The notes under the pieces: generated by a model
What the model saw: the letters and a program-made list of their open reading frames with translations, nothing else
Told to the model about the DNA's origin: nothing
Database searches by the model: none
Shown here: positions 3,341 through 40,410 of the stretch, one piece after another
How the letters are laid out: the number at the start of each line of letters is the position of its first letter
How positions within the stretch are numbered: position 1 is the stretch's first letter
Program-made: the position numbers and the translations under genes
Assembly: GCA_964016885.1 (NCBI GenBank)
Contig: OZ024742.1
Location: 229,214,001 to 229,278,000, forward strand
Direction: 5' to 3'
Origin: Eledone cirrhosa
Lineage: Eukaryota
DNA: 64,000 nucleotides

Positions 3341-4108
3341 AAGTATATGTATTTATGTATACATATTTATACATGTATATACACGGTTTACGAAAGTCAC
3401 TGATGTTATTTCAATGGTCTCCTTCCATGTCTCACTCAATGAGACAATAAGATTACAGCTGTGAAACTGCATCTTGATGTTTAGAGTGCACACATAATAG
3501 TTATATAGTGAGTACAGTGACTATATTTAGGTAAAGATACGTTACGTATTTAGCTCCTAGACGGATTCCATTTCTGTGAAATATTCCACCCAACAACAAT
3601 TATTAAAAGTGTAGTTGTAGAAATTGCGCATTATTAGCATATATTACGCAATTGGGCAATTACACGTCCTCAGCAGGTTAACACCCAACTCAATACATAG
3701 GTCTTTAGTGTGTACATACTAGCGTGTAGTGCTCCGATAATAAATCTGGCAGTCCTACACTATCATGACATGTGACCTCTAAAAATAGAGGAAGTCCATT
3801 ATGTGAGAAAAAACACGTTCTGGTAAATACAAAATATGCAATTCCCGCCAATATAGAAGTCAACCAGTGATACACGCATGTAAATGCTGACTAATAATAC
3901 AAAATCGAACATTCAATATTCAATATATAAACAATACAAAGAAATATGGAAAATCTCTAACCTCTAAACTATATAACATTGAAAAATAGACCAAAGACCC
4001 TTATCTGTTTTCTTATTCGAAAACAATTTCTTTGTAAACTATATATATACATATACATACAATCATATATGTATACATATATATAGTAGTAGAACACTGG
4101 AAGGTAAT

Positions 4109-5134
4109 ATGCGTAGTGGTAGAGCACTCAGTCCATGGGACGAGTTAGGACTTAGGATAACAGTATCTACCAACCTCTCTAGCGTAGATTTCTTAGACAT
4201 TAATTTAGACCTTCGCACACACACCTGCAGACCCTTCCATAAGCTAAACGAAAAACTCAATTACATTCACAAGGACTCATGCCACCCTCCCACTGTTTTT
4301 AGAAACTTCGTAAATAATATCAGTACTAGAACCTCAAACCTCTCCTCTAATAAGGCTATCTTTGACAGGGCGGCACCCTACTATAACACGGCGTTAGCTA
4401 ACAGCGGCTTCTCCCAACCTATCACATACTCTCCCACTATCAACAACAGCAATAAGAAAAGTAAGCGCAACAATAGACAAACTATCTGGTTCTCTCCTCC
4501 TTTCTCACTCAACGTTAAAACCAATCTAGGCAAAACATTTCTAGCCCTCTTAGATAGACACTTTCCCATAGGTCATAAATACCGCTCCATCTTTAACCGA
4601 CACAAAGTAAAACTAGGATATTCCTGCGTTAAGAACATGAAGGCCCACATCACCAACAACCCTAAGATCAACACCCCACCAGAGTGCTCTTACGGTAAGC
4701 CCGAAGCTTGTCCACTTCAACAGCAATGCAACAGACCCGCTGTAGATTATAAAGCTGTGGTCACTTCCAACCGACCAAATCAACCACAGGAGGTCAAATT
4801 CTATGTGGGTGTGGCGGAGGGCCGATTTAAGGAACGCTTCCTGAACCACCAGTCGACCTTTAGGTACCCGGACAGACGTTCATCCACGAAACTCGCGAGC
4901 CACGTATGGTCCCTCAAGGACTCAAGTATAGACTACTCCATTCAATGGAAAGCCATTACTAAGTCCAAGCCATACGCCAGGGGAAATCCTTCGTGTGGAC
5001 TATGTATTGATGAACGAATAAATATTCTAAAGAGATTATGCAATAGCGATTGCCTTAACACGAGAAATGAATTCTTCACACGTTGTCCACACGTCTCGAA
5101 ACACCTCTTACGTAACTACAACTTTCCGAATTAA
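4109..5134 (+). CDS. PLE RT thumb + GIY-YIG endonuclease (N-terminally truncated, open frame)
   Basis: RT motif E VDFLDINLDL; YIHKDSCHPP; IWFSPPFS..KTNLGK.FL.LLDRHFP; Cys linker CSY..PEACPL..QC; GIY-YIG motifs YKA..FYVG..EG.FKERF.NH..TF, LASHVW.LK, CGLC.DE..I and LNTRNE..CPH. Confidence 0.88.
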   Translation: MRSGRALSPWDELGLRITVSTNLSSVDFLDINLDLRTHTCRPFHKLNEKLNYIHKDSCHPPTVFRNFVNNISTRTSNLSSNKAIFDRAAPYYNTALANSGFSQPITYSPTINNSNKKSKRNNRQTIWFSPPFSLNVKTNLGKTFLALLDRHFPIGHKYRSIFNRHKVKLGYSCVKNMKAHITNNPKINTPPECSYGKPEACPLQQQCNRPAVDYKAVVTSNRPNQPQEVKFYVGVAEGRFKERFLNHQSTFRYPDRRSSTKLASHVWSLKDSSIDYSIQWKAITKSKPYARGNPSCGLCIDERINILKRLCNSDCLNTRNEFFTRCPHVSKHLLRNYNFPN

Positions 5135-5303
5135 ATTACAACAACACCCTAATGTTCTTATCAACTAGAAACTTTTCGGGCTTTCGCAGTTATCTCCCTT
5201 ACACCTCTCGCACGCATTTTAGTATTGCCTTTGTGAAGTGACCGTTTCTGCACATGCACGTTCGTACGCTTGTCGTTCCTGTTCCATATAACCATGTCTA
5301 TTA

Positions 5304-5341
5304 CGAGCTGAGGATCCGCTAGAGTGAAACAATTGTTCTCG
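5304..5341 (+). ncRNA. Type I minimal hammerhead ribozyme motif in the PLE 3' end
   Basis: CGAG-CTGAGGA-tccgctagagt-GAAA-CAATTG-TT-CTCG. Stem I CGAG/CTCG, palindromic stem III AACAATTGTT, GUU site. Stem II is weak. Confidence 0.65.
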
Positions 5342-5400
5342 GTATGGTGTACAAACTGTTGTGTAACCACTTGTATATATATATATATATTTTTTTTTTG

Positions 5401-5436: not shown

Positions 5437-5439
<3 letters not shown>

Positions 5440-5682
5440 AAAATGAGATTTATCTTAATAAAAAAAGGGAGGTCCTACACGAATGAAAATATAAGGTAAG
5501 GAAATTGAAAATGCAACTGTGGGCTTATTAAGAGTATTTATTTATTTCCTTTACCATCTGCGAGAAAAACCACAAACCCTCCATCTCAATTGTACTTTTG
5601 AAAAGCATAAGAACTGTGAAACCCGTAAAGGAAACAAATAAATAATCTTAATAAGACTCCAGTTGCATTTTCGATTTCTTTT

Positions 5683-5687
<5 letters not shown>
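5437..5687. mobile_element. Fold-back element family B copy with degenerate HHR (5595-5630)
   Basis: Inverted arms GAAAATGCAACTG / CAGTTGCATTTTC between (TA)n tracts. Homologous to 16971-17182 and 18607-18966. Confidence 0.75.
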
Positions 5688-5746: not shown

Positions 5747-5750
<4 letters not shown>

Positions 5751-5922
5751 TCTAATTTTGGCACACGGCCAGCAATTATCCAGTGCATTACTGGTACTTT
5801 ATTTTATCGACCCCGTAAGCATGAAACGCAAAGTTAATCTCGACAGGATTTGAACTCAGATCGTAAAGAGATGTAACCATGCTGGAAAGCATGGCGTCCG
5901 ACCCTCTACCGATATTGCCAAT
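5747..5922 (-). mobile_element. tRNA-derived Meta-type SINE
   Basis: Diagnostic ACTGGTACTTTATTTTATCGACCCCG..GAAA.GCAAAG..GGATTTGAACTC; B box GAGTTCAAATCC on the minus strand. Confidence 0.8.
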
Positions 5923-6371: not shown

Positions 6372-6846
6372 ATTGTTATACTTGGGGAGGGTCATATTAT
6401 TATAATATTGCCGGAAATAATAACTGCTTGGTTTGGGTTGGTTTTCGCTTCTCGATCTTTTATATCTACATAGCTAATGTATTTGGCAATCAATGTATAC
6501 CATTGATTGACCAGCGGTCAATCAATGATAAACATTGATTGCCAAACATAAAATACAGATATAAATATATACAGATATAAATATATATATACTATTAAAG
6601 TTCTTTCGTCGTACATCTGCGACATCATCAGCGATACTATTATGTTTCCTCCCATTTTATTGTAATTTCTACGCCATTTATATTTTATTTATTTATTTAT
6701 TTCTTCTTGTCTCTGTCTCTGCGCATGCGTTTGCGTGTGTGTATAATGTTTGGTGTGTGTGCTCGCGTTTGAGTGTATGTGTTTTTGTTTTTGTATTCTA
6801 TCTTTGTGCACAAGTGTGTGTTTATATATGTTTGTTGTTATTCTAC

Positions 6847-6924
<78 letters not shown>

Positions 6925-7111
6925 TTATTTACTTATTTGTATTTCCCCTAAGTCAGTATACATATATATATATATACTGACTTAAGGGAAATACAAATAA
7001 GTAAATAAATAAATATATATATATATATATATACATGTAGAATAACAACAAACATATAAACACACACTAGTGCACAAAGATAGAATACAAAAACAAAAAC
7101 ACATACACTCA
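6372..7111 (-). mobile_element. Family C PLE 3' end (pLTR with HHR at 6593-6636) plus fold-back centred at ~6965
   Basis: Begins ATTGTTATACTTGGGGAGGGTCAT, as at 52964. 6770-6958 is inverted at 6973-7111. Minus-strand CTGATGA-T-GTCGCA-gatg-TACGAC-GAAAGAACTT. Confidence 0.75.
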
Positions 7112-7132
7112 TATGTATATATATATACATAC

Positions 7133-7216
<84 letters not shown>

Positions 7217-11012: not shown

Positions 11013-11598
11013 CTCCCCCTCTCCCTCCTCCTCCTCCTGCTCCTCCTTTAGAAAATAAGATCAAATATAGAGTCTAATAGCACGGCTTTAGTACGACAAA
11101 TAGGGATACAGGTAATAGCTGATTGGTTAAAAAGAACGATTTAGCAGAACACATACTGACGCAGATACACATACACGCTCACACTTATATACGTTTAGCT
11201 GGAGACCTACAGGGTTGCATTTCAGTGGACGGTTTTAGGCTTTTTAATTATAAATTCTCTCGCCCTAGCTGGAAAGCAACGTGAAATGAAGCGTCTCGCT
11301 TAAGAACATGTGTTGCTCGCTCCAGGATACGAACCCACGAGCTTATGATCGTGAGTTCAATGCTCTAAGCACTAGGACAGACAGAAACACACATACACGC
11401 GTGCACATACGCACACATACACACACATGTGTATGTATGTGTATAGATTTTCTGTTTTATCGTAGAAAATATAAAGTTCTCAACATATACTTATTTTAGA
11501 AGAGTGTGAATCGATTCTATATATCCTTATCGTGTCGCCAGACATCTTTAGTTTAAGTGAGCTGAACGGGCTCATTATAGGTGTTGTGATTAAAGAAT

Positions 11599-11790
11599 AA
11601 TTGTTTCTACTTTTGGCACAAGGCCAGCAATTATCCCAGGGTATTACTGGTACTTTATTTTATCGACCCCATAAGGATGAAAGGCAAAAGTTAACTTCGG
11701 CGGGATTTGAACTCAGAATGGCAAGGGCCGTAACTCCATGCGTCAAAGCATGGCGTCTGACCCTCTACCGATACTGCCAATCCACCGCCC
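11599..11790 (-). mobile_element. Meta-type SINE, full length, with a partial tandem duplicate at 11794-11852
   Basis: Minus-strand head GGCGGTGGATTGGCAGTATCGG and B box GAGTTCAAATCC. GTGATTAAAGAATAATTGTTTCTACT is repeated. Confidence 0.85.
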
Positions 11791-12774
11791 TAAGTGATTA
11801 AAGAATAATTGTTTCTACTATTGGAACAAGGCCAGCAATTACCCAGTACATTACAAAAAAAAAATGAGGAGTGTGCAAGCTCTACATCCTTAGCTTGGAC
11901 TGTATATCTCATCTTTGTCTAGTGGTTAAAATAGCAGCGAAAACTGCTGTGATGAACAGCCAGCGATATCCGCTGCATTAGACTTTCCACTTCATTAGGT
12001 CCCATCATGAAATGTGATGCCCTGTTCCCAAGTTTTGGTTGGGGAAACTGGCAGTCTGGAGACTGAGAACACCGAATGTCTCAATGGCGAATACTATTTA
12101 AAATTGTGGAGCAGACAAAAAGATGGTTTTCTATTTATCATCGTTTGCATGGCAGATCTTTTGATTTCCTTGACATATTTGATTCCAACCTTTCCCGTCT
12201 AGTGGCGTTGTTATCAATTAATTATAAAAACTATTAATTATTCAGGCTGGACCATAAATCGCTTTACTATTTAAAATTTTAATAACTGTTATTCTACTTA
12301 AAATTAATTTTAAAATTTTATTTCAGATTTTGAAAATATGTTACGTGTGAATTTATCAAGGAAAAATTCTTGATGGAGCAAAAACTTGAAGTCATTATTA
12401 AATACTGAATACAAATTATAAAAAAAAAGAAGAAAGAAACCAAAAAAATATCGAGTCATTGACCACCCTGTAATAGTTATTCACTATTCATAAACATTCT
12501 TGCATTCTTTGTGATTATAAAAGCTGTCGACGTAGTGAAATATCAAATGTTTAACCAAGAAGAAAAACTCTTCATTATTTCCAATTTTTTTTCTCTCACT
12601 TTCTTTATTTCAAAGAAACGTCTTGCCTGGAAGGAATCGGGAAATCATGGGGTTCTAAATATTGTTTTATGTTTTCAATGATTAAAAAACAGTCAATATT
12701 TCACTGTACTTACGAGGTGTTTTAAGCTTAGTACTTCAATCTTAAGTTAGCGAGATGACTGAATCGCTATGGCA

Positions 12775-15552: not shown

Positions 15553-15910
15553 AGTTATACTTTGGGAGGGTCATGCTGCCAATAAAAACGCAAGCACCCG
15601 TTGGTTTTCACTTCAATTTATTATAAATTTCCGGTTGGTTGGTTGGTTCGATAACGGGGTGGTTGTTTATATATATCACTCATTCAATGACCTCGTCAGT
15701 GACTAGGTTTTTATTCTGTGTCTCTCCTTTGTTCTGTCCTACAGGACATAATGTGTGACGAAAGAGCTTTGACATTATATAAACAACCATTCCGTTATCG
15801 AACCAACCAACAGGTACGCGTGTTTTTATTGGCAACATGACCCTACCAAAGTATAACAATATCTGTTTCAATACACATTCTCAGAGAAGAAATCTTCCAA
15901 AAACGAAGTA
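15553..15910. mobile_element. Fold-back element family C copy with split HHR halves
   Basis: GTTATACTTTGGGAGGGTCATG..GCCAATAAAAAC is inverted to GTTTTTATTGGCAACATGACCCTACCAAAGTATAAC, followed by a ~50-nt tail. AGTCA-CTGACGA on the minus strand; GTGAC-GAAAGAGCTT-TGAC on the plus strand. Confidence 0.8.
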
Positions 15911-15937
15911 TGTATATATATATATATATATATATAT

Positions 15938-16108
15938 ACGAGACAGATACCACTAAGTGCACATCTAGACATATGCGCAAGTAATAAGACACCCAAATTC
16001 CAAGTCTTCCCATTTTACCTTTGCGCTGACAATACAACAGAACAAATACGAATAAATGAGGAAAATATGTTTATTCAAAAATATAGACCAGCATTAAATA
16101 TAGTTTAA
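15938..16108 (+). pseudogene. C-terminus of a PLE GIY-YIG endonuclease (not in the ORF track)
   Basis: Manual translation TRQIPLSAHLDICASNKTPKFQVFPFYLCADNTTEQIRINEENMFIQKYRPALNIV*, with the R..EE..FI.KY.P.LN terminal motif. Confidence 0.75.
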
Positions 16109-16281
16109 TATACATTATGTTAACACCATAACATGCTAACCATCCAAACAGACACATACATACACACACATATAACACCTTCTACTTTAGAAATTAAAAA
16201 CCAGAACTAAATAAACCTTAACATACGTTAATGCTCTAACACCTTAACATGCTAACCGTACTCCCACACACACATAACACC

Positions 16282-16363
<82 letters not shown>

Positions 16364-16734
16364 ATACCCATACACACACACATAACACCCACACACGCAA
16401 CTCCCTACCCCATTTCTACTAATAGAATCACTTTACTACACACACACACACAGACACACAAAATATATATATTCTCTCCATCTTAACATGCTAACCATAC
16501 TCCCACACACACATACACACACACATACAACACACTCCCCCATTTCTACTAATAGAATCATCTTCCTACACACACACACACACAAGCACACACATAAACA
16601 TACATATCTCTACTTTCTTTATTTCAATAGAAAGTCTGAATTGTGACACCCCAGCGAACCAGCCATATTCACTGAACCAGGACAATTCTCCCCATCCTAT
16701 TTCTCTTGACCATTATCTTTTATTCCCAAATACG

Positions 16735-16975
16735 GGCGCGAATATTAATGAACTTGTTCACGTGACAGTCATAATTTCATTAATAACCAATCAAATTACA
16801 TTAATAAAAAAAAAGCTTCGTGAGCCACTTTTTTGAAGTAAAAAGAAATTCAAACAAACTGGCGCGAAATTTATTATACTTATTCACCAACCAATCAAAT
16901 TACTTCTCTAAAAACCTGGCATTTCGAGCCACAATTTTTCTATATAAACAAGTAACATTCAAAGACCAACCAGAT
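16735..16975 (+). promoter_or_regulatory. Putative Pol II promoter inside the PLE 3' region
   Basis: GGCGCGAA at 16735 and GGCGCGAAA at 16861 (E2F-type); CACGTG at 16759; CCAAT at 16787 and 16891; TATATAAA at 16941; CA initiator at 16971-16972. Confidence 0.55.
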
Positions 16976-17176
16976 GTGAGAAAAACCACAGACCCTCCAT
17001 CTCAACTCTACTTTTGAAAAGCAGAAGAACTGCAAAACCGGTAAAAAACCAAATAATTATATATATTAAAAAAAAAAAGACTCCAGGTGCATTTTCGATT
17101 TCATCTTCTTTCCTTATATTTTCACTCGTGTAGGACACCTTGGTTATTTTTCATTTTGTAAAAAAAAATACCTCAC

Positions 17177-17213
<37 letters not shown>

Positions 17214-17221
17214 TAAAATAA

Positions 17222-17432
17222 ATGGTTTCTGATTTAGGCACAATGTCAACAATTTAGGGTAGGGGAGAATCGATTAAATCGACTCCAGTGAGTTACTGGT
17301 ACTTTATTTTATCGACCCCGTAAGAATGAAAGGCAAACATAAACTCGGCGGAATTTGAACTCAGAACATAAAGGTTCGTAACTCTATGCTGCAAAGCATG
17401 GTGTCTGATGATCTACCGATAATGCCAATCAA
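17222..17432 (-). mobile_element. Meta-type SINE
   Basis: ACTGGTACTTTATTTTATCGACCCCGTAAGAATGAAAGGCAAA..CGGAATTTGAACTCAGAAC. Confidence 0.85.
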
Positions 17433-18052
17433 CCAATAATAATAATAATAGGTATAAATCGAAGTTGTAGTGGCAGTATAGTAGATACCAATCGAATGGT
17501 TTAAGGCAGTCAGAAAGCAGTCAATATATGAAAAACTCAATGGTGCGAAAGGGTAATACATATATATAATTATGTGCATATGTATACATACATACATATA
17601 TACATACACACACTCCTACCCATATATATATAGATATGCATGTATTTTATATATATATATATATGAGATTAAGTAAAACATTATCCACACTGGACCAAAT
17701 GCATCGGAAAGGAAAGAGTCTATGTAGAAAAATGACGTACGTGTTTAATACCTGCTTTTGGGTAAATAAATTGAAAGAACAAGAGTGTTCATCATTTTTG
17801 ACTTTCTCTCGTATATATATATTCATATATGCATCTGGATAGAATTTTTTATTCTGTATAGTATTTTGTAATATTAGGACAAGCACTCAGTGTAACGTTA
17901 CTCAATTATCTTTCGTGTAAGATACTGTTGGTGGTGCGTGGACAGAGTTAAACATTATTGAATAAAGTGACAGGAGGCTGGAAAATTGAAATTCCTTTAA
18001 AGTTTTTATTCTGCAAAAATTATGCATATCAGTTATAAAGGAAACACAGTCA

Positions 18053-18510: not shown

Positions 18511-19004
<494 letters not shown>

Positions 19005-19009
<5 letters not shown>

Positions 19010-21056
19010 CGTAAAATAAGAAAATTATAAAAATTTACTTACTTACTAAAATTTCACTCCAACTAATTAGTTTCTGAAAGGGAATAAACATGGTTTCCGA
19101 TTGGAACAACATGGAGAAATATCCTTTCGTCATCAGGGAGATCTGTTCTCAGCTAAGTTCCCAGGCAAAGCGTGGACACAGGGAACTTATACAAAAATAA
19201 TTCAGTGGATGGAAAAAAGCAAGCGAGGACTAGATTCCAGGACACTGAAAAAATCACTGCCTACTTAGTCGGTGGCGAATTCAAAAGAATCAATCACGTG
19301 ACATCGAGGTCAATCAGTGAGGAGTGAGGGTACTAAAAAGACAATAGCCTGGCTATTACTATGAAGCATAGCAGTAGTTTTGGCAAGTTTTTGCTCAACA
19401 AAATAATTTGGAGATAATTATAAAGAATTAGTATATCTACCAACATATATATACAGATGTATACCTATGCTAGCAAATATATAGGTTTTGTCTTAGTAAC
19501 TTTGAGGTTCAATGCAAGGGGATGCAGAACAATTATATGAAAGACGTAAAATAAGAAAATTATAAAAATTTACTTACTTACTAAAATTTCACTCTAACTA
19601 ATTAGTTTCTGAAAGGGAATAAATATGGTTTCCGATTGGAACAACATGGAGAAATATCCTTTCGTCATCAGGGAGATCTGTTCTCAGCTAAGTTCCCAGG
19701 CAAAGCGTGGACACAGGGAACTTATACAAAAATAATTCAGTGGATGGAAAAAAGCAAGCGAGGACTAGATTCCAGGACACTGAAAAAATCACTGCCTACT
19801 TAGTCGGTGGCGAATTCAAAAGAATCAATCACGTGACATCGAGGTCAATCAGTGAGGAGTGAGGGTACTAAAAAGACAATAGCCTGGCTATTACTATGAA
19901 GCATAGCAGTAGTTTTGGCAAGTTTTTGCTCAACAAAATAATTTGGAGATAATTATAAAGAATTAGTATATCTACCAACATATATATACAGATGTATACC
20001 TATGCTAGCAAATATATAGGTTTTGTCTTAGTAACTTTGAGGTTCAATGCAAGGGGATGCAGAACAATTATATGAAAGACGTAAAATAAGAAAATTATAA
20101 AAATTTACTTACTTACTAAAATTTCACTCTAACTAATTAGTTTCTGAAAGGGAATAAATATGGTTTCCGATTGGAACAACATGGAGAAATATCCTTTCGT
20201 CATCAGGGAGATCTGTTCTCAGCTAAGTTCCCAGGCAAAGCGTGGACACGGGGAACTTAGGTATACGTCTGATGACGAAAGGATATTTATCCATGTTGTT
20301 CCAATCGGAAACCATGTTTATTCCCTTTCAGAAACTAATTAGTTAGAGTGAAATTTTAGTAAGTAAGTAAATTTTTATAATTTTCTTATTTTACGTCTTT
20401 CATATAATTGTTCTGCATCCCCTTGCATTGAACCACAAAGTTACTAAGACAAAACCTATATATTTGCTAGCATAGGTATACATCTGTATATATATGTTGA
20501 TAGATATACTAATTCTTTATAATTATCTCCAAATTATTTTGTTGAGCAAAAACTTGCCAAAACTACTGCTATGCTTCATAGTAATAGCCAGGCTATTGTC
20601 TTTTTAGTACCCTCACTCCTCACTGATTGACCTCGATGTCACGTGATTGATTCTTTTGAATTCGCCACCGACTAAGTAGGCAGTGATTTTTTTCAGTGTC
20701 CTGGAATCTAGTCCTCGCTTGCTTTTTTCCATCCACTGAATTATTTTTGTATAAGTTCCCTGTGTCCACGCTTTGCCTGGGAACTTAGCTGAGAACAGAT
20801 CTCCCTGATGACGAAAGGATATTTCTCCATGTTGTTCCAATCGGAAACCATGTTTATTCCCTTTCAGAAACTAATTAGTTGGAGTGAAATTTTAGTAAGT
20901 AAGTAAATTTTTATAATTTTCTTATTTTACGTCTTTCATATAATTGTTCTGCATCCCCTTGCATTGAACCACAAAGTTACTAAGACAAAACCTATATATT
21001 TGCTAGCATAGGTATATATCTGTATATATATGTTGGTAGATATACTAATTCTTTAT
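19005..21056. mobile_element. Family E: 535-bp HHR-containing tandem array with inversion (retrozyme-like / PLE pLTR array)
   Basis: Units start at 19005, 19540 and 20075. Inversion junction at ~20260-20269; inverted units run to 21056. Near-identical copies with (TA)n flanks. Confidence 0.9.
20801..20884 (+). ncRNA. Type I hammerhead with long stem II (family E); minus-strand copies at 19057-19140, 19592-19675, 20127-20210
   Basis: CTCC-CTGATGA-c[GAAAGGA..CATG..TTCC aatc GGAA..CATG..TCCCTTTC]a-GAAA-CTAATTAG-TT-GGAG. Palindromic stem III AACTAATTAGTT. Confidence 0.7.
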
Positions 21057-22182: not shown

Positions 22183-22817
22183 AACGCTGTACTAGTTTCA
22201 AGCTTATTAGCTATCGTCAGCAACGTATACCTTATAATAAATGTTCGGTGAATGCATACGTACATATATATATGTGCATGTATGTATATATATATACATA
22301 CTACTGTACGTCTCTATACATATATGTATGTACGTATACATACTTAGATTTAAGTAACAACCGTACTAAGAGTGAGAAATGAAATTTTGTTTCATTTTTT
22401 CCGTTTATCGTTTTCGGTACCCTGACCGATTAACTCACTCGATATGCAAATTAGGCTGCTCAGCCGTTAATATGCATACGGAAAGTATATACTTTCAGAC
22501 TTCAATCATCTGGCAGGAAGGTATACGTTGCTGACGATAGCTAATAAGCTTGAAACTAGTACAGCGTTCCTTTGTCAGTGTTGAACAAATGAGCAACGAT
22601 GGTTGCTAGACACTGTATGGCTTAATACGAGATGTTTGTTTACAAACACACCGAGCATTATAATAAATGTTCGATGAATCCATACGTACATATGTGTGCA
22701 TGTATGTGTATATATATACATACTACTGTACGTCTCTATGTACGTATACATACTTATATTTAAGTAACAGCCGTACTAAGAGTGACAAATGAAATTTTGT
22801 TTCATTTTTTCCGTTTA
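22183..22817 (+). mobile_element. Family D: ~1.4 units of a ~426-bp HHR repeat plus a short inverted HHR arm
   Basis: TTATAATAAATGTTCG repeats at 22232 and 22658. HHR at 22526-22566 (+) and 22185-22225 (-). Ends in (TA)n. Confidence 0.85.
22526..22566 (+). ncRNA. Type I minimal hammerhead (family D)
   Basis: CGTTG-CTGACGA-tAGCT aata AGCTt-GAAAC-TA-GTA-CAGCG. Palindromic stem III ACTAGT; GUA site. Confidence 0.75.
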
Positions 22818-23217: not shown

Positions 23218-23425
23218 AACGGAGGAAATGTGGTAAGGAACCAGGTAGACCATAACGCACCAAAGTACTCAATACTTAGGGTAGTAGAGTGGGTAATAGG
23301 AACGAGTAGGACCCCGACGGCTGAGCTCAAGCCGTTTCGACGGCTAATTCTGGACTAAAAATGATTTTTAGTCCAGAATGAGCCGTCGAAACGGCTTGAG
23401 CTCAGCCGTCGGGGTCCTACTCGTT

Positions 23426-23430
<5 letters not shown>
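23218..23430 (-). mobile_element. Fold-back family A, copy 2
   Basis: Palindrome 23296-23430 centred at ~23363. Tail on the left; (TA)n flanks. Confidence 0.85.
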
Positions 23431-24174: not shown

Positions 24175-24389
24175 ACTGTATATATATGTTTGTGTGTGTG
24201 AGTATGTGTGTATGTATATATATATATATGTATATATATAATTGTAATTTCAATCCATCTACAATGTGGTAATACTTCGGCATGATTAGATTGTTTGTTG
24301 CTTATTCTTTCCTTAGTTGACATATTTGAAGATCTATCGCGAAGGCCTGTGAGGGAGAAGACATAGAGTGCTATGTAGTAGTTGTATTA

Positions 24390-25121
24390 ATTGTTTCTAC
24401 TTTAGGCACAAGGCCAGCAATTACCCAGTGCATTACTGGTACTTTATTTTATCGACCCCGTTAGGATGAAAGGCAAAGTCAACCTCGGCGGGATTTGAAC
24501 TCAGATCATAAAGGGACGTAACTATGCTGGAAAGCATGGCGTCCAACCCTCTACCAATACTGCCAATCCACCGCCTGTCAGTAGTTGTAGTAATGATGGT
24601 TAATCAGAGTAGATGTAAAAGTTTAATAATGTACTACGGCGTTTGTACGGGATGAATGCAAATGTTTAAAATTGGATAGATGTTGTTACACACAAACGAC
24701 CTCACTCAATAATTGTTTCTACTTTTGTCACAAGGCTTGCAAATACCCCAGTGTATTACTGGTGCTTTATTTTATCGAACCCGTAAGAATAAAAGGCAAA
24801 GTTAACCTCGGTGGGATTTGAACTGAGAACGTAAAGGGACGTAACTCTATGCTGCAAAGCATGGTGTTTAACGCTCCACCGACACTGCCAATCCACCGAA
24901 CTCAATAAAGATTTCTACTATAGGCACAAGGCCAGCAATTTTGGGGGAGGGGAAAGTCGATTAAATAGACACCAGTGCATTACTGGTGCTTTATTTTATC
25001 GACCCCGTAAGGATGAAAGTCAAATTTAACCTCGGCGGCATTTGAAAACAGATCATAAAGGGGTGTAACTCTAAGCTGCAAAGCATGGTGTCCGACGCTC
25101 TACTGATACTGCCAATACACC
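24390..25121 (-). mobile_element. Three Meta-type SINEs (24390-24575, 24711-24898, 24911-25121)
   Basis: Each has ACTGGT.CTTTATTTTATCGA.CCCG..GAAC/AAAC and a TACTGCCAAT.CACCG head. Confidence 0.85.
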
Positions 25122-25445
25122 GCACTCGATAATACTTAGGTATTGAGCCTCTTTGAAAACAGTCTGCATGGACACTGAATAGCTTTAACAAACTTCATTG
25201 CTACATGTAAGAATTGGATCTCACTCGGCTTCAAAGACAAGTGTTTCAGTTGTTCAATTAAAAAAGAGCCCTGATCATGGAATTGGCTGGGCATTACAAA
25301 GACACGTGCAGCATTAACCTAATTCTCTGAGTGATTCAGCGTGATAGAGTGTGTGACATCCGACGGGCTTCCAAACAAGTTTCTCTTTACGCAATTTCAC
25401 TCATAATGTTTAGGCGAATCAAGGCTATGATAAAAAAAAACATTA

Positions 25446-25652: not shown

Positions 25653-26862
25653 AAACAAAAAAAAATGAAACGAAATTTCATTTCCCACTCTTAGTACGGC
25701 TGTTACTTAAATATAAGTATGTATACGTACATACATATATGTATACAGACGTATAGTAGTATGTATATATATATACATACATGCACACATATATATATGT
25801 ACGTATGAATTCACCGAACATTTATTATAATGCTCGGTGTATTTGTAAACATACATACCTGTATTAAGCCGTAGTGTCTAGCAACCATCGTTGCTCGTTT
25901 GTTCAACACTGACAAAGGAACGCTGAACTAGTTTCAAGCTTATTAGCTATCGTCAGCAACGTATACCTTCCTGCCAAATGATTGAACGTCTGAAAGTATA
26001 TACTTTCCTTATGTATATTAACAGCTGAGTAGCCCAATTTGCATATCGAGTGGGTTAATCGGCCGGGTGCACCGAAAACGATAAACGGATAAAATGAAAC
26101 GAAATTTCATTTCCCACTCTTAGAACGGCTGTTACTTAAATATAAGTATGTATACGTACATACATATATGTATACAGACGTACAGTAGTATTTATATATA
26201 TATACATACATGCACACATATATATATGTACGTATGGATTCACCGAACATTTATTATAATGCTCGGTGTATTTGTAAACATACATCCCTGTATTAAGCCG
26301 TAGTGTCTAGCAACCATCGTTGCTCGTTTGTTCAACACTGACAAAGGAACACTGTACTAGTTTCAAGCTTATTAGTTATCGTCAGCCACGCATACCTTCC
26401 TGCCAGATGATTGAACGCCTGAAAGTATATACTTTCCTATGCATATTAACGGCTGAGCAGCCTAATTTGAATTTTCGTTTCATACTCTCCGTTTATCGTT
26501 TTCGGTGCACCCGGCCGATTAACCCACTCGATATGCAAATTGGGCTACTCAGCCGTTAATATGCACAAGGAAAGTATATACTTTCAGACGTTCAATCATC
26601 TGGCAGGAAGGTATACGTTGCTGACGATAGCTAATAAGCTTGAAACTAGTACAGCGTTCCTTTGTCAGTGTTGAACAAACGAGCAACGATGGTTGCTAGA
26701 CACTACGGCTTAATACGGGATGTTTGTTTACAAACACACCGAGAATTATAATAAATGTTCGTTGAATCCATACGTACATATATATATATATGTGCATGTA
26801 TGTATATATATATATACATACTACTGTACGTCTGTATACATATATGTATGTACGTATACATA

Positions 26863-26868
<6 letters not shown>
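25653..26868. mobile_element. Family D: ~429-bp HHR tandem repeat (~1.9 units on the minus strand) plus an inverted unit on the plus strand
   Basis: AATGAAACGAAATTTCAT repeats with a 429-bp period. Inversion junction at ~26465-26490. HHRs at 25921-25961 (-), 26350-26390 (-) and 26616-26656 (+). (TA)n flanks. Confidence 0.9.
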
Positions 26869-26921: not shown

Positions 26922-27120
26922 GGGAAAAGAGTCAGGACCCGCCGAATGAGTTCCTGCCGTTTCGACAGCTATATCCGAACTGAGTTCGAGTTCGGATCGA
27001 GCTGTCGAAACGGCAGGAACTCAGTCGGCGGGTCCTGACTCTTTTCCTATTACCCACTTTACTACCCTAAGTATCGAGTACTCTGGTGCGTTATGGTCAC
27101 CTAGTTTCTTACCACACTTC
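26921..27120 (+). mobile_element. Fold-back family A, divergent copy 3
   Basis: GGAAAAGAGTCAGGACCCGCCGA..TCGGCGGGTCCTGACTCTTTTCC palindrome followed by the family tail TACCCAC..CCCTAAGTATCGAGTACTCTGGTGCG. Confidence 0.8.
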
Positions 27121-27205
27121 TTTTTTATATATACACACACACATATATATATATTTCTATCTATCAATTATCTATCTATAATCTATCTATCTATTATCCA
27201 TTTAC

Positions 27206-27457: not shown

Positions 27458-28520
27458 ATGAGTGACTTGGAAAGAACGCCGAAGAATGTTAACAGAGAGG
27501 AGAGAGGTAGAAAGGCATATATTAACGTCATATCTGCTACTGGAACTATGGACGTCGTCATGGATACGACTGTCAACAAAGAAAAAATATTGCCACTTGA
27601 ACATTTTCAAATTTCTACCGTGGAAGCAGAGAAAAATAACACACAACATACACAGAAAAACACAGAAAACACAGACATTAAACCTATTCATATACATACA
27701 CATGAAAAAGCCAACAACGACAACCCCATGGATACATGTATAGATAAAGTTTCACCGCGTCAAGAAATTGCGATTTCTAACACCGAGGCTGACAATGACA
27801 ACAACAACAACACCGCAAAAAATGTATTTCTCTGAAACAGTGAACAAGAAACAAGATTTTATAAATCTTGACATCTCTAATGCAAGGGATATGCTCCAGC
27901 AAGAGAGAAAATTTGTAACTTTCGAAGACAAGGGTGGGTTTATAAATCAACTCACCCCTCGAAATAAAAGAAGAGACGGTTCGAAGCACAGTGACCTTCA
28001 GGACTGTCTCAAACATCACAACGAGAACGCCAGTATTTGTGAGTCAAGGAGACATAGAAGCGACCTTGAAGGAGACTCTAGAAAATATTGACTTTCTTCA
28101 ACGAGGAAGACAGTACGGAAGTATTTCCGTACATTTTAAAAGCGAGGCACTCGACCCAAAACATTCTATGACACCAAAGGTGTCAAAAGCATTCACCTTT
28201 TCCCTACGTACATGGGAAAAAGGACACAAAAAATCAAAATCAAAAATATACCACCAAACATTAACATCTGGTGGATCTTGGCTGGCTTCGTTGAGTCAGA
28301 GACTGATGCTATTCTTTCGGTCCGGAAGTCTATTAGACAAAGGTGGGCGGGTACTGATTTTGGGATTCTGATGCAGATGAGGCCGGAGAGAATCTCCAGA
28401 ATACCCGAAAAAGTCGTCATCGACGACAACAACAAAATAAACACTTCGGTGGAAGGGCGTAAACCTCATTGCTTTCGCTGTGGTCCACAGCACACCTAAA
28501 GGCCTCCTGTCCTTCACAAA
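27458..28520 (+). pseudogene. Tx1-like ORF1 (gag-like, CCHC zinc knuckle), frameshifted
   Basis: KIKIKNIPPNI..VEGRKPHCFRCGPQ/HLKASCP, i.e. CX2CX4HX4C across a frameshift at ~28495. Confidence 0.7.
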
Positions 28521-29379
28521 TACACCACAACTACATCATTTACAAAAACACTATTACCAACACCAACACCAAAATAACCACCACCACAAGTACAACAACA
28601 GACGAAACGAGCAAACACACCAAAACAAACAGACACTCAACCAACAACAACAGAAAAAATACAGACAACACCTCTGAAGAACACAACCACACCCCATCCT
28701 ACTCCATCAAACATTACCACAAACGCACACACCGAAACACCGTCACCACACAACATTCCCCTACCCCACACTCCTGACGATGACCATTCATCGACGGATG
28801 AGGCTGCTCCTCCTTCTTTAAGTGAAGAAGAGCCTCGGAAATAAAAAAAACAAAAAAAAGAGACACCACTAAAACCCACAAAACTCCAATAACCAGCACC
28901 AACACACAACCACAGACACAAACAACAACAAAAACAATACTACAACCAAAGCTCCCCTACCAACAAAACAAACACCAACACCACCCCAAACGCAAAAAAA
29001 TAAAACTCACAGACGAACAACAAACTAAAACAACACAACCAAAACAAAAACAACAATATACATACATCAACACCAACAATAACAATTTAATGGAGATTAT
29101 CTCCCAGGACCCCAAAGTGGAAAGTGAGGGGAAAACATTTGTAAAATGTGACACTGCACTACACCTTAAATTAATAAGGATTCCGGTAGAAACCTACGAC
29201 AAACTAAAGAACCAATTTTCACAGGACGTTGGCAAGCCATGCCAAAAACCAATAAACCGTGTCATGTTGAAATGTTTCTCCCCCACACTCAACACCCCCA
29301 CCAAAACTGAAATGGAGATCGAACAACCCGATCTCCAGGAAACGGTAAGGTAAGTGCATCCTTTCGTCCTTGTTTTGCC

Positions 29380-32300
29380 AACTCTTTTACATCAACGAGT
29401 TGGAAGAGTGAATGTGCGTGGCCTAGGGATGCCCTGGAAACAGGGCAAACTCTTAAAGGACCTTAGGTCACACGATATAGATGTGATAGCCATCACCGAG
29501 TTCAGGCTCCACAACTGTTAGCAGCTGACCCCCATCTTCGACAACTTTGAGATCTACGAATCTCTCTGTCAGCCAGGAGGTGGAGGAGGAGGAGCTGTCA
29601 TGTTTCGGAAAAACCTGGACATCGAAATACAGCAAGTATATTTGGACCCGGAGGGTCGACTGGTAGTCCTAGACGTGAACAGTGTTGGAGGTGGAGCCTT
29701 CAGACTGGTGGCCGTTTATGCCCCGACAGGGCAATCGCGGCCAGACTTCTTCAAGCGTCTAGAGTCTTTTCTGGGAACGCTCGCTCCTTGCTTTTAGTGG
29801 GTGACTGGAATGGTATCCTAGATGCACGATGGGACTATGTAGATCATGTCCCAGTAGAGCGGGGTGCAACATCTTCAAAACTTTCATCGGCCAATTCCAA
29901 CTGGCCTATAGGTATCGACTGGATTTCCCGACTGCACCACAGTGGACATGGGCAAACAGTAGCGGGACATCTAGATCGTATTTACATAGGTTCTTCATAA
30001 GAGAAAGAGACAAGGCAATGTTAAGCTGTCGATGAATGCACATGGTTGCCTATTCAGATCACAAATTAGTCGTCTGCATAGTAAACCATGATAGTACACA
30101 TAGACAGAGACCCGGATACTGGAAGCTGAACGTGTTGTTGCCGGCACGTAAAGCTTACAGTGAACGGATAAGTAGACTAGTCAAGAAACAGTTGACGGGA
30201 GCCATCGCCAACAATAGATGGTGGTACTCTCTCAAGAAAGCAATTAGAGTAGAATCGATAGGGTTTAGCAGAGTTAGCCTTAGAAGAAAACAAAATAGAA
30301 AGAGAACTAGTAGCCAAGGTAGAGGAGGCACTTAGAAGTGTCAACGCGGCTAGAGTGTTATCGTCGAGAACGGCACTGGACCAGTTCTTCGACGCGAAAC
30401 GCGAAGTCTGCGCGGGCAGAAGCAAAACATGTGCTCTAGGAAACGAAGGAGCGAAAGCTGTCAGCTGTGCCCGAGTGGTGGAGGGAAAAAATGGCAACAA
30501 GTCCAAGATTCGGTCTTTGAATGACCAAAACGGACGCGTGTTACTTGACCCCAAGCACATGTGCGCGGCCTTTCAGCAGCACTTTGCGCGACTGTTTAAG
30601 CAGAACGACGCTGAGCCGAACGGGGCAATGGACTTTAATTCATACCTCAACGGCCTACCGCATCTCTCGAACACAGACGCCGAGTTCTGCGAAAGACCGA
30701 TCACGGACACTAAGGCCGCTGCGGGAAACGCAAGTCACCCGGTCTAGATGGTCTACCCTATGTGTTTTACATAATCATGCCGGTCTTGTTCTCTGTCGCC
30801 CTCGAAGCCGTCTACTGCAATTGGCAGCAGAACGGAAGAATTCCCAGTTCTGCAGGCAAGGGCGTAGCAACGCTGATCAAGAAAGACGAGAACAAGGGGG
30901 ACGAAATTAACAACTTCAAGCCCATAACTCTGCTCAACACAGAGTTAAAGATTTTGGCCACGGGGCTAGCGACGAGGTTGGCGCTTGTTGTCGAGAACCT
31001 GGTAGGGAAAGCGCAAACGTGTGCAATCCCGACTAAGTCCATACACGACAACCACCACCTCATGCGATGCATCATAGAGAGGGTGGGTAGTAAACCCGGC
31101 TTCGGTGGGGCCCTGATCAACTTGGATCAGTCTAAGGCATTCGATAGGGTCGACCATCGATACTTGGAAGCGGTTCTCAAGGCGGCCGGTTTCGGTCCCG
31201 TGTTCAGAGGATGGATCGAGGCGATGCACACCAGCATCTGCTCGAGGGTCAAGGTGAACGGCTACCTATCGGAGCCGTTCGCAATCACTCGTTCCATTCG
31301 ACAGGGGTGCCCTCTCTCCTCAATTCTGTATGTATTTACTCTAGAGCCACTACTACTGAAATTGGAGCTGTTGCAGGGCATGCCTCTAGAACCGAGACTG
31401 CGCAAAGCGGTGTAGACTTATGCCGACGACGTGACGGTAATGGTGTCGAGCACCTCGGAAATTGGGGTGATCGGCAAAAATACTAAAGAATACGAAACGC
31501 TGAGGGGAGCAAAACTAAACTCGGACAAGTCTGTCGGTTTGCATTTCCGTACGTGGAGAGGCAAACCAATGACGTCCGACAGCATCGTTGGATGCTGGAC
31601 GGACGGACCGATGAAATTGCTCGGGGTCTGGTTCGGTCTAGACCTCCAGGTGGAGAAAAACTGGAACGAGTTCACAGCCAAGGTGTTTGCGCTCACCCAC
31701 AAGTGGGCAGAGTGAAAACTGTCCTTGAAATGTCGAGCGGAGGTGGCTAACGCTTTCATAGCGTCCGTCATCTACTACCGCTTGACTGTCGTGCCTTGTC
31801 CCCGTGAAAACCTCGCCAAGATGGAACGCATGCTCTTCCAGTTTCTGTGGAAGAAGCAGGCTCCGCTGGTGAGGAGATCCGTCTGCTGTCAGCACCCTTC
31901 CAACGGAGGGCTGGGAATGCCGTGGCTGATGATGCGCATCTCCAGGTATTCCTCACCGACCCCCAAACGATGTGGGCACCGTTTGTGAGACAGGCTTTCC
32001 CGCAACTTGTTTCGCTGACGGAGCTGCAGTCCTGGGTCAAGAAAAGACCGAAAACTATGGGCGCCTGGCACATTGAATGCGCTCAGGCGCTCACAGTCCT
32101 CTGGCAAGCGAGCACAACAATCAGTGGAGACTCCACTTCGACATTCTATAGAGGGATTCTACGTTACAAGGGCGACGACGTTCTCAGAGAGACTCTGGGC
32201 GTCGAAGATGATGAGCTCACCAGTCTGTTTGGTAGGACTTTCCGCCCGTGACCTATGGACAACTTCAGTGCTACAACAACAGTGCTACCGAGGAGCTCTA

Positions 32301-36210: not shown

Positions 36211-36733
36211 TTCTTCTGGTTTTATAATTTCACAAATTTTTACCAATAGAGGGAGAGTCGGTTTCTAACATTGTTACAATACTCTCTCATTGGAATTTAC
36301 ACAATATCAACTAGGTAGATATGTATGCAGGTCTGCATGCATGTGTAGATATGGATGTTATTGTATGTGTGGATGTGTATGTTTTGAGTTGTATGTGTGC
36401 ATGTGTATATGCTTTGTATCTGTACATGTGCATATGCAGTTATTAGATGCAATATTTTTGGAATGTTTTACATATTTTTACTGTTCCATTAATGGATTGT
36501 ACTTGTAGTTTCCTAACTTGTTGTGTTCTTTCTGTTCCTGTGAAGCCTAGCTTCTCAAGATTTGTATTGAGGCAGTTACTAACATATCCCAGTGCCTCAA
36601 TAATCACAGGCATAAATCTGAAGGTGTAATCAGGGTGGAGTATCTGCAGATTTCTCATCAGTTCTGCATAGATATTCTCCTTTTCACTAATCTTTGATAT
36701 TATATTGGCATCTGCTGAGCAGCTAATTTTCAT
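36211..36733 (-). mobile_element. R4/Dong-like RLE non-LTR element, 3' fragment, in (TATG)n
   Basis: SCSAD.N...KISEKENIY.EL.RNLQ..P.Y...MPVIIEALGY..GTVKICKTF. The 3' UTR is shared with 37859-38126. Confidence 0.8.
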
Positions 36734-36915
36734 ATATGTATGCATGTATGTATGTATGTATGTATGTATGTATGTATGTATGTATGTATGTATGTATGTA
36801 TGTTTCTATGTATGTATGTTTGTATGTTTGCATGTTTTCGCTTTCTCTTAATTTCGAGTATATTTTTTTGACCGGCCACCTTCCTGGTGGCAAGGTTGTA
36901 AAAGAAAAGAAATTG

Positions 36916-37719
36916 TCATCCCTTGAATCGCAAGAATGTTTTGCAAATTTTGAAGGTGCCAGCTATCGCAGTCATTTGCAGACTATGAATTAGGGAGCTG
37001 CGCTTTTTGTCCGCAAATCCAAGTTCAGTCATACTTTGGTCCAAGCGGGTTGGTATATAACCCGTAGCACCAATAATGATGGGTATGAAGCTAAAAGTGT
37101 ATCTTGGATACTGGATTTGTAAACTCCTCATCAATGGTCCGTAGATGTCCTCCTTCTCCTGTATTTTTCTGACAACGTTTACATCAAGTGGGCAGCTGAT
37201 CTCCACAACAGAACACGTTTTCAATGTGTGGTCCCAAACTACAATATCAGGCCGGTTGTGCTTTAATTTGGTGGCAGTTTTTATTTTCAGGTTCCACCAG
37301 TATTCCTTAGTGCCATCTGTCTCTATATATTCTTCCTCGTTTGTTGTTAATTTTGTTTTCCGAAGTGCGTTCCAGATGGTTCTAGCTATCCCATCGTGTC
37401 TCATGGGGAGGTAGTAGCGAGATGACATTCTTTCGCAGCTGGCAACAATGTGGCTTACATCCTCGATCTTTGTTTTACATAGCCTACATTTATTGTCAGC
37501 TGCTGGCCCTCCTCTTTTGTGCAGCAGATATTTGGTAGGGAGTTCTTGTTCCTGTATTGCATAGAGATATCCCTCAAGGTGTGATGTCATAAACTTGTCG
37601 GAACTCCATGCCAGGCTTTTTGAGTGGTTTATCCCCTCTATGGTCTGTGTTTTACGCCTCAAGTATCCATGCACAACTTTTTCTGTAAATTGGTCAATTT
37701 TCTTATCTTGTTTGAACAT
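36916..37719 (-). CDS. R4/Dong-like non-LTR C-terminus: CCHC zinc finger + PD-(D/E)xK restriction-like endonuclease (5'-truncated, open frame)
   Basis: AIQEQELPTK; CRLC...EDVSHIVASC; RHD; HNRPDIVVWD..VVEISCP.D.N...EK..Y; IPIIIGATG. Confidence 0.88.
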   Translation of the reverse strand: MFKQDKKIDQFTEKVVHGYLRRKTQTIEGINHSKSLAWSSDKFMTSHLEGYLYAIQEQELPTKYLLHKRGGPAADNKCRLCKTKIEDVSHIVASCERMSSRYYLPMRHDGIARTIWNALRKTKLTTNEEEYIETDGTKEYWWNLKIKTATKLKHNRPDIVVWDHTLKTCSVVEISCPLDVNVVRKIQEKEDIYGPLMRSLQIQYPRYTFSFIPIIIGATGYIPTRLDQSMTELGFADKKRSSLIHSLQMTAIAGTFKICKTFLRFKG

Positions 37720-37858
37720 TGAATAGGATCTTCCGATTTCTATGGGTATGTATGTTTGTATGTATGTATGTTTGTTTGTATGTATGTATGTATGTATGCA
37801 TGTTTGTATCTATGTATGTATGTTTGTATGTATGTATGTTTGTATGTATGTATGTATG

Positions 37859-38399: not shown

Positions 38400-39340
38400 G
38401 TATGCCCCTGCCCCTGCTAAGCAGTACAGTGAGCCCAATATCTATGTGTAAGGTAAACGACTTGGAGTGGTTGATCATTTGTCTTCCTGGGAAGCACTGT
38501 CAATCGATACAGCAACCTTGATAATGAAATTCCACTCAGCATTAGGAAAGCAAGTGATGCTTTCGGAAAGCTAGAAAGGCGCCTCTGGGGTTGGCGAGAC
38601 ATATGCAAGAAGAGAAAGGTAAAGGTGTACAAGGCATGTGGGCTCTCTTCTTTTCTTTATGCCTGCGAGACCTGGGTCACATATCGACACCAACTTAAAC
38701 AATTGAAGCGTTTCCATCAGATGTGTTTCAGACGGATCCGTGACGTTCACTGGAGGGACCACATCAGTGATATCGAGATTTTGGAAAGCTCTCTGTGTGA
38801 CAGTATAGAAGCTCTTGTGCTTAAGTAAAGACTCTGTTGGAGTGGTCACCTTGCCAGGAAGAACGGATTCTAGAATACCAAAACAACTCTTTTATGGAGA
38901 GTTAGTTAAAGGAAAACGACCTCCACATAAACCAAAAAAGAGGTATAAGGATTCGTTGAAAGCCTCTTTCAAAGACGCTAACATATCTGCTGATACATGG
39001 GAAAATGTTGCTGCTGATTTTAATAAATGGAGAAAGACTGTATATGAGGGGAAAGTTGCCTTTGAGGCATTTCGAATCGCATACGAGAAAGTAAAGAGGG
39101 ATGTGAGGAAGGGCATTGCTGTTGCACTTCCAGACAGCTAAAGTTCTCCTATAGCGCTGACATGCAGCGGCTGTGCGAGACTCCACCTCAGCAAAGCTGC
39201 ACTCGAAAGTCATCTTAGCAGTCATAAAGTTAACTACCAGGCTGCTGTTGGGGATGCTACTCATCATGCCTGCCAAGCATGTGGTAGAGAATGTAAATCA
39301 GCAGGAGGGCTCAAACGACATGGAAGTTCAGCTACACCCG
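38400..39340 (+). mobile_element. RTE-clade LINE 3' part (RT C-terminus plus C2H2-like finger), degraded
   Basis: KASDAFGKL..RLW; VYKAC..LYACETW..HQ.C.RRI..V.WRD; DSRIPKQLFYGELVKGKR..KPKKRYKDSLK; CQACGRECKS.GGLKRH. Confidence 0.85.
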
Positions 39341-40270: not shown

Positions 40271-40410
40271 TGTCACCTTGACGAATCAAAGAAAGGATAA
40301 AAAAAGAAAAACAGACCCTTAAATATATTTTCTGTGCTATTTCCAACTTCACTTTTCTCTCCCTCTCTCTCTCTCCCCCTCTCTCTCTCTTTATATATAT
40401 ATATATGTGA

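Follow-up and report, generated by a model that had tools for sequence, protein, structure and literature searches.

THE LOCUS: A 5′-TRUNCATED PENELOPE-LIKE ELEMENT

The 64-kb stretch of DNA analyzed here (the window) is AT-rich animal DNA, laden with microsatellites and strewn throughout with retroelement fragments, and may in this be akin to an octopus genome. Near its first quarter lies the 3′ portion of a Penelope-like element (PLE), in which the end of an endonuclease reading frame, a 3′ UTR, a promoter-like module and a short pseudo-LTR, termed family B, follow one another on the plus strand:

15938..16108, plus strand: C-terminus of a PLE GIY-YIG endonuclease, 56 codons and a stop, identified by homology
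16109..16734, plus strand: 3′ UTR rich in C and A, containing a (CA)n run and degenerate repeats, traced by strand skew
16735..16860, plus strand: promoter-like module, copy 1, with GGCGCGAA at 16735, AACCAATCA at 16785, GAGCCAC at 16822 and TTCAAA at 16849; no TATA
16861..16971, plus strand: promoter-like module, copy 2, with an E2F consensus site at 16861-16869 (−111), a CCAAT box at 16889-16897 (−81) and GAGCCAC at 16926; its proximal part carries TATATAAA at 16941 (−31) and a reverse CHR-like TTCAAA at 16958 (−14)
16972, plus strand: predicted transcription start (+1), the A of a C-A step, homologous to hairpin axis 18754
16972..17182, plus strand: family B pseudo-LTR at the 3′ end of the element, followed by (TA)n, 90% identical to 18753-18965

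The preliminary description had read a GIY-YIG C-terminus at 15938-16108, and homology bears this out. The fragment has 74 protein matches at E ≤ 0.001 (HMMER; best identity 67%); GIY-YIG is present in all six homologues scanned and RVT_1 too in the three longest, the long homologues thus combining RVT_1 with a C-terminal GIY-YIG. By itself, the 56-aa fragment (15938-16105) yields no Pfam match, and a word-based protein search with it returned no matches. The CX2-5CxxC linker ahead of GIY-YIG, described as a mark of Neptune and Nematis PLEs (PMC8557442), is seen in homologues P0001, P0008, P0024, and P0063; the linker region falls outside the window fragment. As judged from these homologies, the family B PLE has a C-terminal endonuclease and appears to be a Neptune-type (EN+) element.

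The 5′ truncation of this copy abuts a (TA)n run at 15909-15938, a second run at 17183-17210 bounds the unit on the other side, and no TA break intervenes from GIY-YIG to +212. GC skew ranges from −0.22 to −0.87 in every 200-nt bin from 15801 to 17200. On the basis of this unbroken C-rich strand skew and the (TA)n at both bounds, 15938-17182 is taken to be a 5′-truncated PLE of ~1.24 kb, of which family B is the last 211 nt. The segment 16109..16734, through which the reading frame would be linked to the promoter-like module, has no other copy within the 64-kb window. Downstream of 17182 there is no ORF; (TA)n and then a SINE-like repeat are found instead. The 16972 copy is a dead end, with no partial tandem that would place its 3′ UTR promoter ahead of an ORF, as is usual for truncated PLE copies. 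A PLE reverse transcriptase (RT) fragment on the minus strand at 39264-40529, unlinked to the 15938 copy, has 46% identity to P0063, a homologue of the 15938 endonuclease, and may belong to the same family as family B.

FAMILY B HAIRPINS

Beyond the promoter-linked copy, family B occurs as two solo hairpins:

18607..18753, minus strand: solo hairpin, inverted short arm (+2..~+147), carrying an undamaged hammerhead motif (core 18712, predicted cut after 18683)
18754..18965, plus strand: the same hairpin, axis A and long arm (+1..+212) with a ~65-nt tail
5437..5555, minus strand: second hairpin, long arm (+69..+212), proximal part absent
5556..5686, plus strand: second hairpin, short arm (~+1..+147), hammerhead core 5598

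Repeats were found by masked self-BLAST, in which 16971-17182 matches 18753-18965 at 90%; an unmasked repeat search was dominated by microsatellites. An axis finder placed axes at six of eight sites and none for 58428 and 6514, of which 58428 was read from self-BLAST. All three family B loci have (TA)n at both ends.

Around axis 18754, 59 of 60 positions pair across a 1-nt loop, an A, and the arms are identical at 145 of 147 positions. A palindrome centered on the homologue of A16972 had been proposed; its axis stands, but its symmetry does not extend over the whole length, the short arm ending at ~+147 and the long arm at +212. The further remark that an arm of the 5437 copy begins at nearly the same place holds insofar as its short arm starts at about −3..+5, but the junction is readable in two ways: as a short arm that starts at −3..+1, has two substitutions and adjoins a long arm from +69..+72, close to where the ribozyme would cut, or as the axis of 18754 with deletions. 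Both junctions lie near +1, and in both hairpins the short arm runs to +147 and the long arm to +212, leaving a tail of ~65 nt. The 18754 arms are only 89–94% identical to other copies, and indels common to both 5437 arms are absent from 18754. Such private indels in 5437, together with the near identity of the 18754 arms, argue that each hairpin was made separately from a single-arm template.

Family B is thus, to judge from its sequence, almost certainly the pseudo-LTR of a PLE, and the hairpin architecture itself is a published PLE structure. Two other identities were rejected: a MITE or foldback DNA transposon, given arm ends ~65 nt apart and a sequence that belongs to the 3′ end of an element with GIY-YIG, and a non-LTR retrozyme, given head-to-tail tandems at none of the three family B loci (family C, described below, does have them).

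A HAMMERHEAD MOTIF AND A POSSIBLE INTRON

Two further features are predicted within the long arm of the 18754 hairpin:

18792..18829, plus strand: type I minimal hammerhead motif, U3-A8 core variant with a palindromic helix III, predicted cut after 18825 (+72)
18823..18919, plus strand: possible 97-nt 5′-UTR intron, with a weak donor GTAAAG over the ribozyme cut site, a pyrimidine tract and a TAG acceptor

A ribozyme had been attributed to family B, and a hammerhead motif is confirmed there by descriptor: a scan of the window gave three minimal type I matches, all in family B (with strict settings, 0/20 shuffles gave a match; with loose settings, the shuffle mean was 0.4). Three of the four family B arms that span the motif pass; the 16972 copy fails, its hammerhead (core 17014) being damaged by G12 to A at 17034 and by loss of the stem I 3′ strand, and its fold lacks stem I. 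The minimum free energy fold of 18792..18829 forms stems I and II (z = −1.0), the fold z-scores of the three hammerhead regions (−1.0, −1.1, and +0.4) being not significant. No hammerhead appears among the Rfam matches listed (150 of 246), which are of the microsatellite or hairpin miRNA kind and below the gathering score.

The weak donor at +70 and the pyrimidine-tract acceptor at +166 suggest a 97-nt intron in family B. Its possible donor coincides with the hammerhead cleavage triplet, such that splicing would destroy the ribozyme; this overlap constitutes a potential splice-or-cleave switch. The template of the 18754 hairpin was uncleaved at +72 and unspliced, with the ribozyme motif intact in both arms. 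Hammerhead cleavage was rejected as the cause of the 18754 axis (+72 versus +1); it may explain where the 5437 long arm starts (+69 to +72).

A PROMOTER-LIKE MODULE AHEAD OF FAMILY B

The motifs listed by the preliminary description are all found: GGCGCGAA at 16735 and 16861, its sole occurrences in the window, CCAAT at 16787 and 16891, CACGTG at 16759, and TATATAAA at 16941. On the minus strand, the E2F site reads TTTCGCGC at 16862-16869. The predicted start does lie 31 nt after the start of the TATA (16972 − 16941 = 31), and A16972 is the only pyrimidine–purine (YR) step 28–34 nt past it. A TATA at −31, a CCAAT box at −81 and a YR start together have the geometry of a TATA-type core promoter.

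The pairs of E2F and CCAAT sites had been counted as separate evidence. Their positions stand; their independence does not, as 16735-16860 and 16861-16971 are a tandem duplication of one ~110–125-nt module (78 of 104 aligned columns identical, a score reached by 0/1000 shuffles). With the duplication, the argument from doubling is lost, but a conservation footprint is gained. The longest blocks conserved between the copies are AACCAATCAAATTAC, GGCGCGAA, and GAGCCAC, and the E2F and CCAAT columns are identical at 17/17 versus 61/87 elsewhere (naive P ~0.002, post hoc). The reverse CHR-like TTCAAA at −14, absent from the preliminary description, has a counterpart at the corresponding position of copy 1. 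GAGCCAC is unchanged between the two modules (16822-16828 and 16926-16932).

Taken singly, the E2F, CCAAT and CHR-like motifs are each at chance level. The E2F consensus TTTSSCGC occurs 4 times in the window versus 2.5 expected (22/100 shuffles), the CCAAT consensus RRCCAATSR 7 times versus 7.25, and the TTTGAA/TTCAAA hexamer 65 times in either orientation. GGCGCGAA is found twice versus 0.27 expected (2/100 shuffles), yet just one of these is independent. TATAWAAR has 81 sites. CACGTG, cited earlier as a promoter motif, proved uninformative and was rejected as evidence, having 14 occurrences in the window and being completed at 16759 by an insertion private to module copy 1. The combination is rarer: a TATAWAAR with a CCAAT 25–75 nt and an E2F site ≤150 nt upstream is found at 1 of the 81 sites, and 0/200 shuffles have any, under a rule written after the site was seen (post hoc); TATA and CCAAT only are combined at 2/81 sites and in 36/200 shuffles. 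The CpG observed/expected ratio is 1.36 in the module versus 0.82 in the window.

The promoter region is single-copy in the window, which leaves it an inference that the module is internal to the PLE; its placement in the 3′ part of the element is supported by position and strand skew. The segment 16861-16971 is likely the upstream Pol II promoter of the family B PLE, and it was probably functional in the active family.

OTHER ELEMENTS OF THE WINDOW

Several other PLE families share the window. Family A (1-183, 23219-23427, 26923-27123, 51764-51927, 56028-56212, and 58296-58480) consists of six TA-flanked asymmetric hairpins with a ~80-nt tail, whose arms start immediately ahead of a segment (GAAA / 6-bp helix / GUC) resembling a hammerhead 3′ half; two of its axes are readable as a single G, possibly untemplated (a cap signature). 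Family C (22183-22815 and 25660-26864), a retrozyme-like, non-autonomous PLE derivative, comprises tandem and inverted copies of a ~430-nt unit, with four hammerhead motifs that have a CUGACGA core. Hairpins of family D, together with a related PLE that is nearly complete but frameshifted, occupy 15554-15908, 52086-52783, 52966-55946 (minus strand), and 6374-7140. The pseudo-LTRs of family D and its relative hold hammerhead-like cores, intron-like signals and the motifs AAATGGCG and GCGCATGCGC, which we take to be YY1-like and NRF1-like, respectively; on this account the PLE families of the window seem to use different promoter motif sets. In three hairpins of three families (5437-5686, 15554-15908, and 51764-51927), the axis-proximal part of the long arm is lost, with ends near the hammerhead, for which palindrome instability and a ribozyme-cut RNA template are alternative explanations. 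Another truncated PLE at 3983-5374 has an RT thumb, an endonuclease-like ORF, a TA end and, near 5308, a CTGAGGA...GAAAC hammerhead-like motif.

Directly after the 18754 hairpin, 19005-21053 holds a very recent insertion, a ~535-nt unit in tandem and inverted copies that are 98–99% identical. Other non-LTR retrotransposon fragments, with LINE-like ORFs in several frames, lie at 27744-32250, 36443-37809, and 38475-39141. A SINE-like family has about a dozen copies, often directly past (TA)n:

5747-5922, 11596-11854, 17217-17434, 24383-25132, 49456-49624, 50995-51607, and 59132-60410: SINE-like copies

THE HAIRPIN AXIS AND THE PREDICTED TRANSCRIPTION START

The central observation is that axis 18754 is the homologue of the predicted start A16972, as the preliminary description had it, and AGATGTGAG occurs at 16972 and 18754 and nowhere else. 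Purines of YR steps 28–34 nt past a TATAWAAR occupy 152 of the 128,000 strand-positions of the window (0.12%); with a looser TATA, 5 of 1,243 positions inside the element conform to the YR rule. These statistics on axis and start are post hoc. The source sequence contains no inverted repeat that would give a 1-nt loop, the best upstream stem being 4 bp with a 15-nt loop. Support consists of one exact junction (18754) and one ambiguous junction (5437).

Junctions of the other families are more varied. Measured upstream from a fixed landmark, the axes of the six family A copies are at 8, 11, 11, 20, 21, and 23 nt, clustered within 15 nt and not at one base; their outer arm ends are fixed, and the family has no source copy in which a TATA could be sought. 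The family C short arm begins at an intrinsic hairpin, with just TATATTTA, 37 nt upstream, by way of a TATA. The long arm of the family D hairpin at 52 kb extends 117 nt beyond the short-arm start, ahead of which there is no TATA; a related element has TATATAAA at 53273, and the 6.6-kb copy lacks that spacing. The 6966 axis lies within a TA run. From the family A spread and the family C, family D and 6966 junctions, it appears that several routes make PLE hairpins in this window.

Searches for further junctions gave none. Predicted proteins, searched with the spurious frame that reads through the axis, contained no candidate. Contig scans, in a collection without eukaryotic genomes, returned 0 matches for 28 nt and 7 for 19 nt; none of the latter extends beyond 19–28 nt, and they are therefore ascribed to chance.

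Since the 18754 hairpin turns exactly at the predicted start, PLE hairpins may record where their RNA began. That the family B junction is a transcription start site is, in our estimate, somewhat better than an even proposition.

HOW THE HAIRPINS MAY HAVE FORMED

A PLE protein studied in vitro nicks both strands of AT-rich DNA and begins reverse transcription at two internal RNA sites, the spacing of which gives the tail; the template is mostly unprocessed RNA, and the 3′ ends of PLE insertions correspond to these internal start sites and not to RNA ends (PMC11167929). The explanation that we favor, at slightly better than even odds, combines a family B pseudo-LTR, an upstream Pol II promoter, and formation of the 18754 hairpin at RT run-off from the RNA 5′ end. 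In a tandem, the 3′-UTR module would act like the U3 of an LTR and drive the downstream copy from +1. Within the first pseudo-LTR of the resulting transcript, reverse transcription would then begin at two sites, +212 and +147, and proceed to the RNA 5′ end, yielding either a pair of short cDNAs or a single cDNA and a copy of it. Inside a (TA)n run these would become joined head to head through their ends at +1 and +2, resulting in solo hairpins without a promoter that turn at the start site, with the ribozyme uncut and the intron unspliced. The template would be an uncleaved, unspliced sense RNA, which may be the normal long mRNA.

An unlikely competitor is that the junction reflects RT drop-off, self-priming or the end of an antisense template near the 5′ boundary of the pseudo-LTR, the TATA+31 match being loose or accidental and the true start possibly elsewhere. 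The scatter of junctions in families A, C, and D is of this kind, head-to-head junctions have been ascribed to self-priming on an antisense template (PMC3846280), and the Drosophila virilis promoter is internal and TATA-less (PMC2377424). Against it stand the canonical −31/−81 spacing, the motifs retained in duplicate, and a source without the stem that a 1-nt loop would call for.

Less probable still is the proposal of the preliminary description, a dedicated, capped ribozyme RNA of ~210 nt, running from A16972 to ~+212, controlled by E2F in S phase and retrocopied non-autonomously. It accounts for the same coincidence at +1 and for the confinement of both hairpins to +1..+212; the E2F site, the CCAAT box and the reverse CHR-like hexamer (−14) are retained in both module copies, and non-autonomous pseudo-LTR derivatives are known (PMC8557442; bioRxiv 10.64898/2026.07.22.740005). 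However, the ends at +212 and +147 agree with the tail signature published for internal RT starts and not with an RNA end, and because the 3′ ends of PLE insertions mark such starts (PMC11167929), no ~210-nt RNA is required, all the more so with a template that was uncleaved and unspliced. There is no poly(A) tail, and the sole AATAAA of the long arm is at +82. The ribozyme is intact and uncut in both 18754 arms but damaged in the promoter-linked copy, whose loss of G12 and stem I counts against a ribozyme RNA started at 16972; the hexamer, moreover, is abundant in the window.

It is very improbable that an ancient hairpin founder fixed the axis and that descendants spread as whole palindromes with homogenized arms and an inherited axis. 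Both outer ends are common to both family B hairpins, and one reading of 5437 is the same axis with a deletion; yet copy-specific variants are present in both arms, family A axes differ among similar copies, and the founder must still have landed on TATA+31. Scarcely credible, finally, is a module of host DNA or chance origin with the 16972 copy as a separate adjoining insertion, or a palindrome that is an assembly fold-back: the module is single-copy in the window and its single motifs are at chance level, but the strand skew is continuous with no TA break from GIY-YIG to +212, and the fold-back was rejected on the unrelated flanks on the two sides of 18754, the 2 arm differences, and the same asymmetric plan in many other copies.

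POSSIBLE CELL-CYCLE CONTROL

The E2F site at −111 and the TTCAAA at −14 place an E2F/CHR pair near the predicted start, each element being at chance alone. E2F/DREAM cell-cycle promoters are usually TATA-less. Among DREAM targets, 45% of CHRs are reversed and CHRs lie close to the start (PMC4176359), with which the E2F site and reverse CHR of family B, as sequence motifs, fit. The CCAAT boxes, put forward earlier as a cell-cycle hallmark, lose that meaning, as they are common basal elements (PMC4176359). Cell-cycle (S-phase) control of the putative family B promoter is on these grounds a tentative and rather doubtful proposition. A bolder reading, which we consider improbable, is that solo hairpins are a record of starts and that a U3-like E2F/CCAAT/TATA/CHR promoter ties retrotransposition to proliferating cells via E2F/DREAM; both PLE cDNAs would then run to the capped 5′ end of the sense RNA and join there.

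IMPLICATIONS

Much at this locus is known PLE anatomy: the minimal U3-A8 hammerhead, the tail, the (TA)n flanks, the head-to-head arms, and a predicted start and possible intron in the pseudo-LTR. Searches of the open-access literature turned up no E2F/CCAAT/TATA PLE promoter and no start-site junctions; the available parts of bioRxiv 10.64898/2026.07.22.740005 and PMC3681739 contain nothing on junctions. Self-priming on antisense RNA has been argued for PLE head-to-head junctions (PMC3846280), and the only in vitro PLE study leaves later steps unvalidated, as far as its available text goes (PMC11167929). The family B locus combines known architecture with a clue, plausible and testable, as to the origin of inverted junctions in PLEs.

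Should hairpin axes prove to concentrate at a start set by a TATA, the template is a capped sense RNA that had not been spliced, and solo hairpins, in their thousands, would provide a free map of PLE starts in genomes without CAGE. An upstream E2F/CHR promoter, if real, would represent a second PLE promoter design, the one dissected case being internal and TATA-less, and would give a retroelement a simple means of targeting germ or stem cells that are dividing. If these readings are wrong, what remains is a truncated PLE and its inverted pseudo-LTRs, neither of them out of the ordinary.

COMPARISON WITH KNOWN SYSTEMS

The closest resemblance is to EN+ Neptune-type PLEs, with which family B shares the C-terminal GIY-YIG, the pseudo-LTR with its hammerhead, the inverted 5′-truncated copy, the tail at one end, and microsatellite targets (PMC8557442). 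It differs in a tail of ~65 nt versus 30–40 and in solo hairpins without an ORF, and the available portion of that account describes no E2F/CCAAT/TATA module (PMC8557442).

The layout of start, hammerhead, possible intron and tail parallels D. virilis Penelope, where the start lies at 371, the intron at 416-491, and a 34-bp repeat is present (PMC2377424). Common to both, in family B as predictions, are a start in the pseudo-LTR region, a 3′ UTR serving the next copy, and a short 5′-UTR intron (in family B a possible one) that touches the hammerhead (PMC2377424; PMC4209133). Unlike the internal, TATA-less D. virilis promoter, the motifs here precede the predicted start, and the hairpins lack them (PMC2377424), and the possible family B intron overlaps the ribozyme by its donor whereas the D. 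virilis intron does so by its 3′ end (PMC2377424; PMC4209133). Adineta vaga Penelope likewise has head-to-head inverted pseudo-LTRs, junction palindromes, a putative TATA and initiator, and a tail; its TATA, however, is inside the pseudo-LTR and its junctions are ascribed to antisense-RNA self-priming, whereas in family B the TATA is outside and the source has no palindrome at the axis (PMC3846280).

The hammerheads of Schistosoma Cercyon PLEs have the same U3-A8 core, a tiny palindromic helix III, and opposite-strand pairs 100–700 bp apart; that of family B is distinguished by a stem II of 4 bp and by no extra base past position 9 (PMC4209133). Anolis Poseidon PAc in vitro provides a parallel in its AT-rich target, its two RT starts that give a tail, and its uncleaved RNA template, although it belongs to a different clade and the available text does not address the site of inverted junctions (PMC11167929). 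Finally, the E2F consensus site and the reverse CHR hexamer near the predicted start recall DREAM/E2F promoters, those being of mammalian genes (PMC4176359).
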